DNA of 64,000 nucleotides, taken from Escherichia coli. GTDB lineage: Bacteria > Pseudomonadota > Gammaproteobacteria > Enterobacterales > Enterobacteriaceae. Location: the NCBI RefSeq assembly GCF_030013595.1, contig NZ_CP122768.1; one strand, written 5' to 3'. Below the pieces are notes generated by a model. It had not been told where the DNA came from, did not search any database, and worked only from the letters and a program-made list of their open reading frames with translations. Positions 8,731 through 29,548 of this stretch are shown one piece after another (within the stretch, counting starts at the first letter, position 1; each line of letters starts with the position of its first letter). The position numbers were made by a program, and so were the translations under genes.

Positions 8731-9059
8731 ATATGGCTGAACATAAAAAATTGTAAAAATTAAACCAGATGCAAATACCCATTAATAAGGTGAGAAAATG
8801 TGACAAGTCACATACTGAGCAGAATGATAAGTTTATTTTTATACTTCCCTGCCGGTAGCATTATTAACTCAATGAAAATTATGCATATCCATCCCATTCC
8901 ATCCTTCATCTCATTAAACAATAAATTTATGCACTCAATTATTCCATTCTTTATATAACAAGCTTTTTAATATTGTTAAATAAAACCAAATACATTCAAC
9001 TGTCAGTTAATATATTCTTGCCTCGCAACACTCTATCTCATTATTTAAAGGACTCAGCT

Positions 9060-22882: not shown

Positions 22883-23176
22883 ATGGCTGAACACAATATT
22901 ACGCCAGAAGTCATCATTTCCAAAACACAGCGCCGCTGTACCGTGGGTTATCTGCCCAACCGCAGCGACACGCCGGTGATCAAAATCAGCGCCAAATGGC
23001 TGAGAGAAGCGGGATTTGAGATCGGCACTGGCGTTACCGTGAAGATCTCGGAAGGTTGCCTGATCCTGCTTGCGGATAACAACGAAGTACAGGAACTGCG
23101 CAGGGAACTGTATCAGGTTAAACAGGCTGTTAAGGGGATGCGTGACGGGATGTTTAGTGTGCTGAACGAGAGTTAA
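22883..23176 (+). CDS. SymE-like toxin-family protein (AbrB/SpoVT-like fold)
   Basis: 97-aa ORF; segment ISAKWLREAGFEIGTGVTVKISEGCLILLA resembles the SymE core ([28 protein letters not shown]) as I recall it; AAGGTAG upstream of ATG. Confidence 0.6.
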   Translation: MAEHNITPEVIISKTQRRCTVGYLPNRSDTPVIKISAKWLREAGFEIGTGVTVKISEGCLILLADNNEVQELRRELYQVKQAVKGMRDGMFSVLNES

Positions 23177-23243: not shown

Positions 23244-23684
23244 CTATTTATTTAAGTATTTTTTAGAGATTCTTAACCACCATGCTTTACCAGAATTAAA
23301 ATTTGAAATTAATACTTTCCCTTTTTTCCTTTTTAAAACATCAAGAATTACAGCATCAGATTTTTTTAATATCCCATCTTCTTGAGGAACACCTAACTCT
23401 ATCAATATATTAATTGAGTCAAATAGATGACCTATCTTTTCATATTCTTCATACAATAAATTACTTTCATTATTCGATATCTGAATTAAGTAATTAAATG
23501 TAACCCCCAAAATATTAGGAAATTTAGAGCTATTGACACTCGATATAAACTCCTGAACAATAGCTCTGTTTTTTAATTTCCCGGCACATAATAAAGCATA
23601 AATATTTCCAGCCAAACGTTCGATATCATGCGGATATCTATATCCTTTAGCAATTATTGCCTTAATTTTCTGTTCAGGAGTCAT
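23244..23684 (-). CDS. candidate Rhs immunity protein (no recognisable family)
   Basis: 146-aa ORF starting 2 nt after the Rhs stop codon, with a GGGAGG Shine-Dalgarno embedded in the last Rhs codons; AT-rich like the Rhs toxin tip. Confidence 0.6.
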   Translation of the reverse strand: MTPEQKIKAIIAKGYRYPHDIERLAGNIYALLCAGKLKNRAIVQEFISSVNSSKFPNILGVTFNYLIQISNNESNLLYEEYEKIGHLFDSINILIELGVPQEDGILKKSDAVILDVLKRKKGKVLISNFNSGKAWWLRISKKYLNK

Positions 23685-23686
23685 TA

Positions 23687-26600
23687 TCAGTACCTCCCGT
23701 TAGGAACAGAAAATCCAGGCAAACGCCTTAGATTTTCCCACGATTCAGGGAAGTGAGTTAAGATCACTGGTGTTTTCCCTATCTGACTTGTTGCAGTAAA
23801 CAAACCTGTTTCAGGATCATAATAGCCTACTCTAGGTTTATTCGTATACCTATCTCTATAAGTAAATTTCCTGCCATTTTGTATCGTGGTTCTTGCACTA
23901 ATATCATATTCTTTTACTGAATTTGCACCGACTTGTGAGCCATGTTTTTCAAAGTGATCTCTTAGGCCCGGCCCATCAACATTTTGTCGTGCTTTATTCC
24001 ATTTTGCATTTTTAGCCGTACCACAAAATAACCCAAGCGGATCGATCCAGCTTAACGGATTTGGCACATAAGCATAGAGGTTCAGCCCACCGTTTAATCC
24101 TATCGGGTCCGTTACCATGAACCGCCCGACATCCGGATCATAGTACCTGTGCAGATTGTAATGCAGCCCCGTTTCCCTGTCGAGGTACTGTCCCTGGTAG
24201 CGCAGGTTCTGCTCCACCCCGCCGTGGTCCTTCTCCTGTATCGTGTTACCCCAGACCTGATACCCCGTCTCCCACACGATTTTCCCGTCGCTGTCCGTCA
24301 TCTCTTCCGGCGCGCCGTTCACATCCGTGTGAAAATACAGTATCCGGTTCGGGCCCTCTTTGCCCGCCTTATCCACCCGCGCCAGCGGTTCATAACTCCC
24401 CGGGTCCCTGTAGATGTACAGGCTGTCTGTTCCCTCCGGCCTGCTCTCCTGCGCCAGCCGCATTCCGTCCCATAAAAATTTTGTCCGGTTGTACGGTTTA
24501 CCGTCAGGACTGATGTGCTGTTTTTCCGTCCGCCTCCCCAGCGCATCGTACACATACCGGTACGTCCCCCGCGCTGTCGTCACTTCCACCATCCGGTGTT
24601 CCGCATCATAACGGTAACTCTGCGTGCCGCTCCGCCCCTCCTTTTCCACCGCACGGCCAAATTCGTCGTAACGGTAGTGCACACCACGGTAAGACATCAG
24701 CCGGTTGAACGGCACCACGCTGTTTTCTGCCGTGGCCCTTTCCCCCGCGCGCCGCGCCAGCAGGTTTCCCGCCGCGTCGTACTGCCAGCTCGCCAGATAC
24801 CCCTCATCCTCCGAGCGGCACGCCGTGATGCGCCCCGTGGGGTCGTAGAAGTAATCCGTTTCCCCCCGCCGGCTGTGCCGCGTCTTCAGCAGTTCATCCT
24901 CGCCACTGTAGCTGTACTGCCGGTCCGTGAACGTCTCCGGTACCCCCCCGCGCATCCCGCTGTATGTCTCCCTGCGCTTCAGCCGCCCGCCGGGGTCGTA
25001 AAGCTGCCGCGTGCTCAGTCGCCCCTGGCTTCTGAGCACTTCACGGTGCAGGGCGTCACGTGTGAACTCGCTGATGACCTCCCGGTCCAGATTTATCTGC
25101 TGGAGATGGCCGCTGCCGTAGTACAGATGACGCTGCGTTCTGCCGTCCGGAAAGGTGGTGGCTGTCCGGTTGCTGAGTTCATCGTACTGATGGGTCAGGA
25201 CGCCCTGCGCCGTCTCCTCAGTCAGCATCCGCCCCAGTCTGTCGTAACTGAAGCGGATAATCTCCGGTGCGTCTGTTTCCCCGGCATCCGACCGTCGGCG
25301 GCGGATTTCCAGTAGCTGGTCTGCCGCATCATGGACGTATTCCGTACGGCTATCGGCTGTCTCCTTTGCCGTAAGCCGGCCCGCCGCATCACGTGCCAGC
25401 CGATGGCGGATTTCACCGCCCCGGTCCCCGGTGAACACCACTTCCGTGACCGCGTTCAGCGCGTTGTAGCGGTACGTCTGGCGGCAGCCGTCCGGATTTA
25501 TCTGCTCCGCCAGACGGTCCAGCACATCATGGCGGAACCGGTAGCTTTCTCCGTTCTCGTTTGTCAGCGTGACCAGACGCCCGTAAGCATCGTACCCGAA
25601 TGCCGTCCTGCGCCCCGTCGCGTCCGTCCGGCTGCGCACCCGGCCCTGCCCGTCCCGCTGCCAGCGCGTTATCCTCCCCATCGGGCTGGTGTACTTCACC
25701 AGCCTGCCCGCCGCGTCCGACTGGTAATTCACCGTGCGGCCGTCCGCCAGTATCACCTCCGTCAGGTGGCCGCTGTCGTCATACCCGTAGCGCGTGCTGT
25801 GGCTCTGCGCGTCTGTCATCCGTATCAGCCGCGTGCGTTCGTCGTAGAACCAGGCCGTCTGCGAGCCGGAACAGTCCGTGTGCCGCATGAGCTGCCCGTC
25901 TTCGTTCCACTGAAGGTATTTATTCCCCCCGCGCGCATCGGTTATCTGCACCACCTGGCCGTGGCGGTCATACTGATACCGGGTGTTCTGCTGCAGCGGG
26001 TCGGTCACCGCAAGAAGATTGCCGCGTTCATCGTACTCACAGCACCAGCTGTTCCCCGCCGCGTCCACCTCCGTTTCCGGCTGGTGCCACACCGGGTGCC
26101 ACTGTGTCTGTGCCACCCGCCCCAGCGGGTCGTGCGTCTCCGTGATATGCCCCTGCCGGTCATACACATAGCGCCATTTGCCGCCCTGCGCATCGGTCAT
26201 TCCCAGTAACAGCCGTTCTTCGTCGCTCCAGCGGAACGTCGTCACCTGCCCGGCTTCGTCCTGGTACGCCGTCACCTGGTTCTGCGCGTCCCACTGATGA
26301 TAACGCGTGCGCCCCAGCCCGTCCGTCACGCACAGCCTGCGTGACGCCAGGCTCCACGCCAGCCGGTACTGTTCACCGCTGTCCGTGTGGTGCCCCGTCA
26401 CCCGCCACGCTGCGTCATCCGGGCCTTCATACCAGCCCCACTGGTAATAATACCCTTCGCCGCCCGGCTGGCGGTGCAGGGTCATGCAGTGGTTTTCGTC
26501 GTAAGCAAACTCGCGCAGCAGGTGTCCCGTGCTGTCGTACACGCCGTTCAGGTCGCCGGCCTCGTCATAGCGGTAACGACGCAGCAGTAAAGGAGCCGTC

Positions 26601-28339
26601 TCAGGGAAATGCTGATAAATCTGTGTCACCCGCCGGGGATGCGCCGCCAGTTCATAATGCAGACGGATGCACGGACGCTGCTGTTCACCGCTGATTTGCG
26701 TGATGCGCCCCAGCTCGTCGTAGTACAGATTCAGACAGTTGCTGTTGCGGTCGCCCAGCATTTTCAGCCGCTGGCGCTGCGGGTGATGCGGGTCGGCCTC
26801 AAACAGAAAAAACTGCCCGTCATCGCTGCTGATAAGCCAGTGCCCCTGCTCACCCCGCCTTACCGCCAGTCCTTCGCCGGGGCTGTAAAACCCGCTCCCC
26901 GGCAGCACGGCCTCCATATCCAGGCGTCGTCCCATGCCCGACACAAAGGTCATACAGTTTTCGTCAGCAGTACCCGGCGTGCGCTCGAGGCTGACTTCAT
27001 ACATCACGCTCCAGCCCTGCCCGAACATCCCTTCCGTGCGGTCGTCACGACTGCTGTACACGCGCTGCCAGTCCAGCGGAAAGTGGCCCGGCAGACTGAA
27101 ATCGAAGTCATCGTCATCCGCCAGATATTTGGCTCCGGTGGCGGCATTGACCGGATGCGGAAGGGCACTGATGGCCTTCTGCGTCATCACCCCCATCCCG
27201 ACACTGGCAGCAAAACAGGCGATTTTAGAAAGCATTTTGCCCGGGCGAAGAAACATCAGCGCCACAGTTGCCACCAGGGTTATCTGCGACCTGCCGCTTC
27301 TGATATCCCTGACCACCAGTAACGGACCGCCAATGCGGACATCCGGTGACACAAACGCCCCGTTCCCCGGCTCATTCACCACCCAGGCCTCGCAGGTGCA
27401 GCGTGCCCCGCTGCGTGCCGCCGGCTGGCTGTTGATACGCACATCCCGCGCGCCTTCCGCGATATATTCCGCTGCGGGCGGTTCATCATCGCCTTTGAAC
27501 AGATTACTGATGCTGCCAATAACCGCATTCACTCCCTGAAAGGCGGTTTCCAGCATACCGCCCGGACTCAGCAGGTTAAGGGCCGTTCCCAGAGGGTCAT
27601 CCAGAAAGGCGGCTTTTTTTTGTGCGAGAAACTGCGTCAGTGAGGAGGGATGTTTATGGCAGTCGATTTTATCGTCAGGGGTCGGGGTGGAGCCCGGGGC
27701 CGCACTGGCCACGGTGGGCTGCCATAGTTCCGACACAAAATGTGTCACGCCATCCACCATTTCAGAACGCCCTTCTTCCGTACTGAGCTGGTCATGCAGC
27801 GCCCGGGACATCAGCACAGGCCCTGTCACCGGGTTAACCGCCAGGGCTATGGCCCCCGCCATTTCCAGATATTCCCCGGCCACATCCCGGAACGTTCTGG
27901 CGTCCTCCTGACGCTGCGCTTCTTCCTGTTCCGCCTTCGCCTGTGCCTCCTGCGCCTCAATGTCCTGCCGCGATGCCGCAGTCGCCGCTGCCCGCGCGGC
28001 AGGTTTGCTGTTGATCCATGTGTCGCCAGAGCCGGTGAGGATGTAACCTTCAATCTGAGGCGGGAAAAGCCAGTTCGCCAGTTGCTCACTTTCCCTACTG
28101 ATTCGGTCATTCCAGCCCTGATACGACATAAATACCGCTGTTGCTATACCGATCGCTAAAATGGTTGAGCAGCCCAGCGTTGCCACTTCAACTCCGCCCA
28201 GCGCCGCCATGGTTCCGACAACCAGAACATCCACCAGGGCTGTGGCGGCAACCTCTACAACTGCCCCCAGCACATCTGCCATAAACGACGTATGCAGCAG
28301 GGCATCACCCTGCCTTGCCGCCCAGAATGCCTCTTCCAT
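23687..28339 (-). CDS. Rhs-family polymorphic toxin: prePAAR motif and hydrophobic segments, PAAR-like region, YD-repeat core, DPxGL motifs, variable C-terminal toxin domain
   Basis: ORF track 1550 aa; N-terminal AARQGDALLH (AARxxDxxxH) then hydrophobic stretches; many YD/RYxYD repeats; VTDPIGLNGG...PNPLSWIDPLGL followed by a ~113-aa basic tail; occupies the K-12 rhsC position but differs from K-12 RhsC at both termini. Confidence 0.92.
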   Translation of the reverse strand: MEEAFWAARQGDALLHTSFMADVLGAVVEVAATALVDVLVVGTMAALGGVEVATLGCSTILAIGIATAVFMSYQGWNDRISRESEQLANWLFPPQIEGYILTGSGDTWINSKPAARAAATAASRQDIEAQEAQAKAEQEEAQRQEDARTFRDVAGEYLEMAGAIALAVNPVTGPVLMSRALHDQLSTEEGRSEMVDGVTHFVSELWQPTVASAAPGSTPTPDDKIDCHKHPSSLTQFLAQKKAAFLDDPLGTALNLLSPGGMLETAFQGVNAVIGSISNLFKGDDEPPAAEYIAEGARDVRINSQPAARSGARCTCEAWVVNEPGNGAFVSPDVRIGGPLLVVRDIRSGRSQITLVATVALMFLRPGKMLSKIACFAASVGMGVMTQKAISALPHPVNAATGAKYLADDDDFDFSLPGHFPLDWQRVYSSRDDRTEGMFGQGWSVMYEVSLERTPGTADENCMTFVSGMGRRLDMEAVLPGSGFYSPGEGLAVRRGEQGHWLISSDDGQFFLFEADPHHPQRQRLKMLGDRNSNCLNLYYDELGRITQISGEQQRPCIRLHYELAAHPRRVTQIYQHFPETAPLLLRRYRYDEAGDLNGVYDSTGHLLREFAYDENHCMTLHRQPGGEGYYYQWGWYEGPDDAAWRVTGHHTDSGEQYRLAWSLASRRLCVTDGLGRTRYHQWDAQNQVTAYQDEAGQVTTFRWSDEERLLLGMTDAQGGKWRYVYDRQGHITETHDPLGRVAQTQWHPVWHQPETEVDAAGNSWCCEYDERGNLLAVTDPLQQNTRYQYDRHGQVVQITDARGGNKYLQWNEDGQLMRHTDCSGSQTAWFYDERTRLIRMTDAQSHSTRYGYDDSGHLTEVILADGRTVNYQSDAAGRLVKYTSPMGRITRWQRDGQGRVRSRTDATGRRTAFGYDAYGRLVTLTNENGESYRFRHDVLDRLAEQINPDGCRQTYRYNALNAVTEVVFTGDRGGEIRHRLARDAAGRLTAKETADSRTEYVHDAADQLLEIRRRRSDAGETDAPEIIRFSYDRLGRMLTEETAQGVLTHQYDELSNRTATTFPDGRTQRHLYYGSGHLQQINLDREVISEFTRDALHREVLRSQGRLSTRQLYDPGGRLKRRETYSGMRGGVPETFTDRQYSYSGEDELLKTRHSRRGETDYFYDPTGRITACRSEDEGYLASWQYDAAGNLLARRAGERATAENSVVPFNRLMSYRGVHYRYDEFGRAVEKEGRSGTQSYRYDAEHRMVEVTTARGTYRYVYDALGRRTEKQHISPDGKPYNRTKFLWDGMRLAQESRPEGTDSLYIYRDPGSYEPLARVDKAGKEGPNRILYFHTDVNGAPEEMTDSDGKIVWETGYQVWGNTIQEKDHGGVEQNLRYQGQYLDRETGLHYNLHRYYDPDVGRFMVTDPIGLNGGLNLYAYVPNPLSWIDPLGLFCGTAKNAKWNKARQNVDGPGLRDHFEKHGSQVGANSVKEYDISARTTIQNGRKFTYRDRYTNKPRVGYYDPETGLFTATSQIGKTPVILTHFPESWENLRRLPGFSVPNGRY

Positions 28340-28357: not shown

Positions 28358-28558
28358 TTAATTCGTCCCGGCTTCCTGCCGCATCCTGAAGCGCAGATTC
28401 TTTTTAATTTCAGCCCAGCGCGTCATATCTGCCGGGGTCAGCGGTGTGGTTCTGGCGTAGGTGAAGGCCATCATGACCCGTTCACCCGGCAATACAAATG
28501 CCACCTGACACTGGTACACCTGCTCGTTACCCCGGAGAAACTGGCTCTGTATTTGCAA
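28358..28558 (-). other. possible remnant of a gene upstream of rhs (truncated Eag/DUF1795-like chaperone?)
   Basis: 66-codon ORF initiating at TTG with an in-frame stop two codons upstream, ending 18 bp before the Rhs start; no ATG start or clear RBS; identity not verifiable by eye. Confidence 0.25.
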
Positions 28559-29294
28559 ACCGCCTCATAGAGATAATATTCCGTCATAATAGAAGTCGTC
28601 CTTTTTAATAAATGAATTATTTATTGACAGGTTCTGTTTTTTAATCATGAATGTAATGTCTATCACCGCTTTACAGCACTCTTTATCTTTCAAGCCGTAA
28701 TCACTAATAACATTAAGCAATTACCCATATTTACAATGACCGGAACTGATATGCCGTTATGTATTTAACAATCCCAACATATTCACCATACCAATAAAAT
28801 CACGAGTAACAAACACGCTACCGCCTCCATATAAAAAATGGACAGCTTATAAAATTGCATCTTGCATAGAAAGGGCTGAGATATCGAGTGTATTTTAATT
28901 ATCAACTATAAATGTTGAATATTTTCATTAACAGAAACACATCTTATCCCATTAGATATGTTAACAATCAATTACTCTTAACATATCACTAAAGTATATA
29001 TTACTCTCTTTACTATCTACTTTTATTGCGGTAGCGATACAAATAGCAAAATTCGGAATTTATTTAGATGCAGGAATTAGAAAAAGGGATGGCGGCTTTC
29101 TCACCTTACCCTGAAGTTTCAGGAAAGTGTGTAAGGAAGGATGCAACCTAACTGGAGATTTCTGAGGATCTAGTTGCTTAGAGCGACAATGAAGGTGAAC
29201 GCATCCAGAGTAGTCCTATGAAAGGATACTATTGAAAATTGATGCTAAAACAGTGATTAAATGAACAACACCATGGAACCCGTTGATTCAAAAC

Positions 29295-29341: not shown

Positions 29342-29548
29342 TCAGTAAAAATCACCAGTTGCCTTTTCGGCCTGATCCATCCACACCGGTTTCTCGCTGG
29401 TTTTCGACCAGACGCGGTGCAGGTAGCTGTAAAAGCGGGCGCGGTCTTTCCAGAAAAGCATGAAAGGCAGCGCCAGAACGCCCGCTGCAACCGCATAAGT
29501 ACGGCGTATAAAGATAAGCCATGCAGGATATTCTCTGTAGAGTTCCAT
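29342..29548 (-). CDS. ybfA: DUF2517-family small membrane protein
   Basis: ORF track 68 aa [33 protein letters not shown]... Confidence 0.85.

Follow-up and report, generated by a model that had tools for sequence, protein, structure and literature searches.

An open reading frame (ORF) of 66 codons found directly before a large rhs gene of Escherichia coli is very probably the 3' two-fifths of an Eag chaperone gene, inactivated by a single old internal deletion of 223 bp (nucleotides 31 to 253 of 453). The window, i.e., the whole 64,000-nucleotide stretch of DNA analyzed, belongs to the E. coli chromosome and carries the order kdp–ybfA–remnant–rhs–immunity–symE–ybgA. Its bases 20000 to 44000 are 100% identical to NZ_CM149862.1 (strain LCP30S3_I5, pig faeces), and the RefSeq annotation of that record was used; along the minus strand it gives kdpF-E, ybfA, a pseudogene, rhs, a gene of 146 aa, symE, ybgA and phrB. 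By the same annotation, no T6SS core gene or vgrG is present in the window, and none of the latter lies between ybfA and the remnant, in agreement with an earlier note on this DNA that had pointed to a missing vgrG. The features are as follows.

kdpF-E, plus strand: RefSeq annotation.
29342..29548: ybfA (RefSeq), 750 bp upstream of the remnant.
28637..28667, minus strand: vgrG remnant, last ca. 10 codons (VIDITFMIKK), stop lost; detected by blastn, without RefSeq annotation.
28599..28603, minus strand: SD-like AAGGA before the eag start codon, conserved in the intact alleles, where AAAAAGGA aligns with it.
28558..28587, minus strand: eag 5' stub, ATG (28587..28585) plus codons 2 to 10 (MTEYYLYEAV), colinear with intact loci.
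28471..28587, minus strand: frameshifted frame after the eag ATG, 38 codons by translation, MTEYYLYEAVCKYRASFSGVTSRCTSVRWHLYCRVNGS and a stop.
28358..28557, minus strand: eag 3' part, nucleotides 254 to 453 of 453 (codons 85 to 150 plus stop), in the original frame (Pfam, identity and RefSeq).
23687..28339, minus strand: intact class I prePAAR Rhs effector, 1550 aa (ORF, Pfam and RefSeq product name).
28070..28260, minus strand: TMD-encoding block of rhs, ca. codons 28 to 91, putative Eag-binding segment, one of two diverged alleles.
23244..23684, minus strand: gene of 146 aa immediately following the toxin tip, a candidate for immunity (hypothetical protein WP_034173990.1).
22883..23176, plus strand: symE, a SymE-family type I toxin gene (RefSeq).

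The 66-aa ORF (28358..28558, minus strand) starts, according to the ORF listing, at a TTG. Its stop codon TAA (28360..28358) is separated by a spacer of 18 bp from the ATG of rhs (28339), and an in-frame TGA at 28567..28565 precedes the TTG, with only the codons GGC GGT in between. All of this had been described in the earlier note, together with the AT-rich DNA found further upstream, and the coordinates agree: GC content is 0.48 to 0.59 within the ORF and 0.23 to 0.37 at positions 28600 to 29000. The same note had suspected the remnant of an Eag/DUF1795 chaperone gene before the prePAAR Rhs, and a profile comparison of the translation bears this out, with a match to Pfam DcrB (PF08786, DUF1795/Eag) at E=2.3e-5 that covers model positions 77 to 126 of 127 only; positions 1 to 76 are absent. 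Of the 66 residues, 65 are identical to residues 85–150 of the intact 150-aa Eag encoded at the same locus in other strains, and the remnant differs from the paralogous eag of the same genome by 2 mismatches in 200 nt. RefSeq already annotates 28358..28561 as a “DcrB-related protein” pseudogene, “incomplete; missing N-terminus” (e.g., ACR3H6_RS17985 in NZ_CM149862.1). NCBIfam gave no match for the Eag fragment or for the frameshift peptide. Judged by these similarities, the ORF is not a chance one, and its descent from the Eag/DUF1795 family is not in doubt. As for what makes an Eag chaperone, the domain match is present with partial coverage and the position directly upstream of a prePAAR, TMD-containing effector is confirmed, but a complete domain of ca. 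140 to 150 aa in a single frame is absent (the first 10 codons and the last 66 stand in different frames), and the position downstream of vgrG is reduced to ca. 30 nt of the 3' end of that gene. With 223 bp lost and a shifted frame, the remnant counts as a pseudogene of the Eag family rather than a member of it, and, lacking most of the fold, it is not expected to function as a chaperone.

The lesion was mapped by alignment with intact eag-rhs loci. A 301-bp segment of the window matched the genomes carrying an intact gene in two pieces, which extend over 511 to 517 bp there versus 288 to 294 bp of the query, i.e., 223 bp extra (BLAST). In a local BLAST against the intact locus at ybfA in 14EC033, the two sequences are colinear from ybfA to nucleotide 23 of eag (87% identity over 1.1 kb) and the match resumes at nucleotide 254. 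The junction, between 28558 and 28557, was set from the BLAST HSP ends (nucleotides 23/254) and by eye (30/254); MAFFT misaligned the short 5' stub. On the minus strand, the window reads AAAAAGGA, 11 nucleotides (N11), ATG ACG GAA TAT TAT CTC TAT GAG GCG GTT and then TGC AAA TAC AG, where intact genes have ATG ACG GAG TAT TAT CTC AAT GAA ACT GTT / GTA ... GGG C / TG GAA ATA CAG. Nucleotides 1 to 30 of eag are joined in this way to nucleotides 254 to 453, with the loss of nucleotides 31 to 253 (codons 11 to 84 plus one base) and a frameshift. The TTG of the ORF (28558-28556) spans the deletion junction, and the 66 C-terminal codons are left without a proper start. Ribosomes that start at the ATG at 28587 would make a 38-aa nonsense peptide ending at the stop at 28471; its out-of-frame tail is also found in an independent frameshift allele (P0016).

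The sharp fall in GC content upstream of 28600 and the fact that RefSeq annotates the 3' part only would both agree with a 5' truncation by insertion or rearrangement of unrelated AT-rich DNA, which is what the earlier note implied and what “missing N-terminus” conveys. We give this practically no credence, as the alignments refute it: the AT-rich DNA, the SD-like site, the ATG and the 10 codons all line up with their counterparts at the intact ybfA locus of 14EC033, which has the same AT-rich spacer, the match ends inside eag, and the tail of vgrG is present. The view of the earlier note that at most a C-terminal fragment survives holds as far as the C-terminus goes, but the SD-like site, the start codon with its 10 codons and ca. 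30 nt of vgrG remain as well. The feature is the same one that RefSeq calls a pseudogene, but the label “missing N-terminus” is imprecise, the loss being internal and the start codon kept. The opposite polarity, with the 223 bp as an insertion in the “intact” alleles, is excluded in practice, since those alleles give the full DcrB domain. Nothing that we found contradicts the reading of the remnant as a pseudogene. A promoter and terminator scan of the ybfA-eag spacer detected no terminator and a single weak promoter-like site, where shuffled sequence gave more such sites. This outcome has no bearing on transcription; rhs would still be transcribed from the retained upstream region of eag.

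It could also be asked whether the 66 codons form a genuine small gene for a mini-Eag that has its own function and is translated from the TTG or, as in Shigella, from the upstream ATG. A GAGG precedes the TTG by 4 nt, the ORF is conserved in ca. 95 to 100 E. coli genomes, and a Shigella flexneri version, in which the stop is replaced, has been deposited as an 83-aa “DcrB-related protein” (P0023, 72 member sequences). We nevertheless consider it very improbable. The first 76 positions of the DcrB model are absent, the upstream end of the ORF varies by lineage (a stop in E. coli, open in Shigella), and PGAP calls it a pseudogene; recombination of the two rhs loci accounts for its close match to the intact paralogue, down to polymorphisms that both carry, such as P126L. 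As the earlier note pointed out, a remnant would have been refuted by homologous loci in which this short ORF stands as a conserved, intact gene; where these loci are intact, the gene is one of 150 aa.

The deletion is found in other genomes as well. Megablast against 5426 complete E. coli genomes found the region in 212, and the annotated feature under the matched region is a “DcrB-related protein,” flagged as a pseudogene in the genome of the window and in many others. From the spread listing and the identity bands, ca. 95 to 100 of the 212 have the deleted allele as best match, while the central 223 bp are present at some place in 204 of the 212 genomes that have any copy. All seven ybfA loci that were read (window, HCP5S3_I2, AR_0077, 14EC020, 2014C-3338, CT282 and Q5) share the identical junction, and the junction alleles differ by few substitutions (NEAVC, YEAVC and NEEVW); five further strains have a pseudogene annotation of the same size. 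The Shigella flexneri protein P0023 (...YDGILSQRGGLEIQSQ...) has the same junction and the same frame, with an Arg codon in place of the TGA, so that the deletion appears to be one old event. A search for contigs encoding this Shigella protein found none. Loss of eag recurs, as other alleles in the protein database are broken in different ways (P0016 and P0019-P0022). Among 5.8 billion proteins, no intact Eag with the N-terminus of the stub (MTEYYLYEAVC) was found, the nearest being Salmonella alleles with NEAV(L).

The intact allele shows what was lost. In strain 14EC033, a gene of 453 nt coding for a 150-aa protein is found between ybfA and rhs, and the same intact eag also follows vgrG in an island near ansP/yddH, both in other strains and in the genome of the window. 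The intact Eag proteins start with MTEYYLNETVV or MTQYYTNEAVL and match the DcrB model of Pfam from position 11 to 126 (E=1.1e-18). Matches to the SciW structures 6xrb, 6xrr and 9mvg were weak (E ca. 0.002 to 0.003, residues 32 to 124), with equal-scoring chance matches listed along with them. A 150-aa DcrB protein, encoded downstream of vgrG and directly upstream of a prePAAR/TMD Rhs effector, is what the intact allele has in common with the Eag/EagR chaperones (SciW of Salmonella Typhimurium, EagR1 of Pseudomonas protegens and Serratia marcescens, and EagT6 of P. aeruginosa). Unlike them, the copy in the window, frameshifted and without nucleotides 31 to 253, has only its last 66 codons in frame and no vgrG before it.

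The rhs module of the window is located between ybfA and ybgA, which we take to be the classical RhsC position of E. coli K-12 (rhsC beside ybfA); the Rhs lineage of K-12 at this site is presumably another one, which lacks prePAAR/TMD as well as eag. The chromosomal site is thus shared, whereas the eag family described here is matched in only 212 of the 5426 genomes. The origin of the module is indicated by the short piece of vgrG. Positions 28667..28565 of the window align with 8884..8990 of the ansP/yddH island of the same genome (L005, vgrG ending at 8917; blastn E=5.5e-16), and the vgrG tail stands ca. 30 nt upstream of the SD-like sequence. The segment reads VMDITFMTKK plus stop in 14EC033, versus AIDVAFMTKK plus stop in VgrG. 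Homology to the vgrG-eag-rhs islands extends from ca. 30 to 34 nt inside vgrG onwards. Because this tail is present, the ybfA module is an orphan copy of a vgrG-eag-rhs-immunity island, with its left edge ca. 30 nt inside the 3' end of vgrG. In enterohemorrhagic E. coli (EHEC) EDL933, such an island has the order vgrG1 (z0707)-eagR (z0706)-rhsF (PMC7216683). The ybfA module has the same eag family, Rhs lineage, immunity gene and symE tail as the E. coli islands of this type (EDL933; ansP/yddH L004, L005 and L009), but no vgrG and, in the lineage of the window, no working eag. A decayed or orphan module had been suggested in the earlier note; orphan is apt, while decayed applies here to the chaperone gene only, the Rhs and immunity ORFs being intact. 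A SymE-family type I toxin gene, convergent with rhs and the immunity gene, is found at the downstream end of all three rhs islands of the genome (22883..23176 on the plus strand of the window, 14597..14926 in L005 and 42684..42917 in L014).

The Rhs protein has the prePAAR motif AARQGDALLH (residues 7-16 of the translation, invariant in 5 homologues) and an N-terminal hydrophobic stretch at ca. residues 20-75 (by eye, a putative TMD region), followed by a PAAR_motif match (residues 291-321, E=1.4e-4), DUF6531 (E=6e-19), Rhs repeats and an Rhs_assc_core tail. The PAAR motif matches are split (27377..28050, residues ca. 97-321), with a weak one at 97-118 and the other at 291-321; the ca. 170 residues between them, with an acidic, Ala/Gln-rich stretch, suggest an insertion within the PAAR domain. 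Neither the toxin tip (last ca. 113 aa; 23687..24030, minus strand) nor the 146-aa protein, a candidate for immunity by the position of its gene, had a match in Pfam, NCBIfam or PDB. Behind the same deleted eag, other strains carry at least five different tip/immunity pairs, among them a HYD1 ADP-ribosyltransferase, an Imm26-paired and an Imm8-paired tip, which points to continued turnover of tips at the ybfA locus or to recombination with the other locus. Twelve deletion strains were sampled for the state of rhs. Seven keep an intact ORF of 1544 to 1562 aa (window, AR_0077, CT282, Q5, SCU-171, 2009C-3133 and 06-00048), and in the other five it is frameshifted or split (14EC020, 2014C-3338, 13P477T, A36 and 2A); some of these frameshifts may be assembly errors. 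The broken copies fit relaxed selection.

The genome of the window also has a complete vgrG-eag-rhs-immunity-symE island near ansP, coding for a 150-aa Eag (WP_000141612.1). The Rhs of the window and that of the ansP island are 91% identical overall and ca. 100% identical over residues ca. 96-1437; their TMD blocks and toxin tips are ca. 50% diverged. Over the TMD block there are 89 mismatches in 180 nt, versus 0 to 4 per 60 nt in the flanks. The TMD block of the window is found in 81 genomes, and in 14EC020 the identical Eag protein is encoded directly before an rhs with a TMD block 100% identical to it. Across strains, each of the two TMD alleles is found at ybfA as well as at ansP, and the same Eag protein precedes both; the TMDs of Salmonella are a further, different variant. 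We had considered the diverged TMD block as tied to the deletion allele in a cognate eag/TMD pair, which was rejected, as both TMD alleles are found behind the deletion and behind an intact Eag. The identity of the Eag beside both alleles, the presence of both alleles at both loci and the polymorphisms common to the remnant and the intact copies lead us to propose, tentatively and as something we would not yet bet on, that one eag, that of the ansP island, might serve two Rhs proteins with ca. 50%-diverged TMDs, so that its loss in cis at ybfA is tolerated; the 3' end of eag and the first 80 nt of rhs would then act as a homology arm for the exchange of TMD blocks and toxin tips between loci.

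Class I prePAAR Rhs effectors need Eag chaperones for stability and delivery, and these chaperones are reportedly specific to their cognate effectors (PMC7773334); PMC7216683 cites DUF1795 as essential for the translocation of Rhs in Shiga toxin-producing E. coli (STEC). The Rhs of the window, if still delivered, would have to be stabilised in trans by the Eag of the ansP island and loaded on a VgrG encoded elsewhere. Such a supply in trans is plausible, with chances close to even, because in 14EC020 the identical Eag precedes an Rhs with the exact TMD segment of the window; the intact vgrG-eag-rhs island of the genome and the retention of the central 223 bp in nearly all genomes with a copy (204 of 212) also speak for it. 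On the other hand, within the genome of the window the intact Eag adjoins the other, ca. 50%-diverged TMD allele, the reported specificity of Eag chaperones applies, and the one promoter-like site upstream does not exceed chance expectation.

The ybfA Rhs may instead be a stranded effector, unstable or unloadable without a chaperone and a vgrG in cis and no longer under selection, in a module that is decaying as a whole, its intact ORF simply not yet hit. To this we assign somewhat less than an even chance. The frameshifted or split rhs of 5 of the 12 sampled deletion loci agrees with it, and so do the requirement of this class of effectors for their specific Eag (PMC7773334), the lack of vgrG at the locus and the lesions in the main T6SS cluster described below. 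Strains CT282 and Q5 add to this, each keeping an intact Rhs (one place each) without any intact eag of the family, so that Rhs intactness does not track chaperone availability. Against a stranded effector, the other 7 of the 12 sampled loci keep an Rhs ORF of full length, some of the frameshifts may have arisen in assembly, the same deletion is followed by at least five toxin/immunity tips (by tip turnover or recombination with the other locus), and the identical Eag is natively paired with the TMD allele of the window in other strains. Overall, we place supply in trans slightly ahead.

The main T6SS cluster of this genome (L015, NZ_CM149862.1 4227900-4272000, at tRNA-Asp/aspV) has an hcp with an internal stop and a tagK split by IS66/IS3, lesions that could be real or assembly errors. 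An IS3 is also found beside tssH, and the cluster contains a third, unrelated vgrG-Eag-Rhs module. The Eag paralogue of this module was considered as a chaperone in trans and rejected, as it has no detectable similarity to the Eag family of the window.

It should be noted that the remnant itself is already known, as a RefSeq/PGAP pseudogene in about a hundred complete E. coli genomes, and is routine; a literature search for the ybfA-rhs locus or its Eag pseudogene found nothing specific. What is added here is the exact lesion, the retained start codon, the vgrG tail, the frequency in the population and the paralogous island with an identical Eag paired to the same TMD allele. None of it will surprise a T6SS specialist, and little is at stake. 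Still, an Rhs effector that looks intact may be without its own chaperone and vgrG, and whether it works then depends on a paralogous island elsewhere, which makes the ybfA locus a natural test case for the specificity of Eag toward diverged transmembrane segments. Incidentally, one protein cluster of 46 sequences (P0013), labelled “DcrB-related protein, partial [Staphylococcus aureus],” is 75% identical to the enterobacterial Eag, and the species label is probably due to contamination or mislabelling in the public records.
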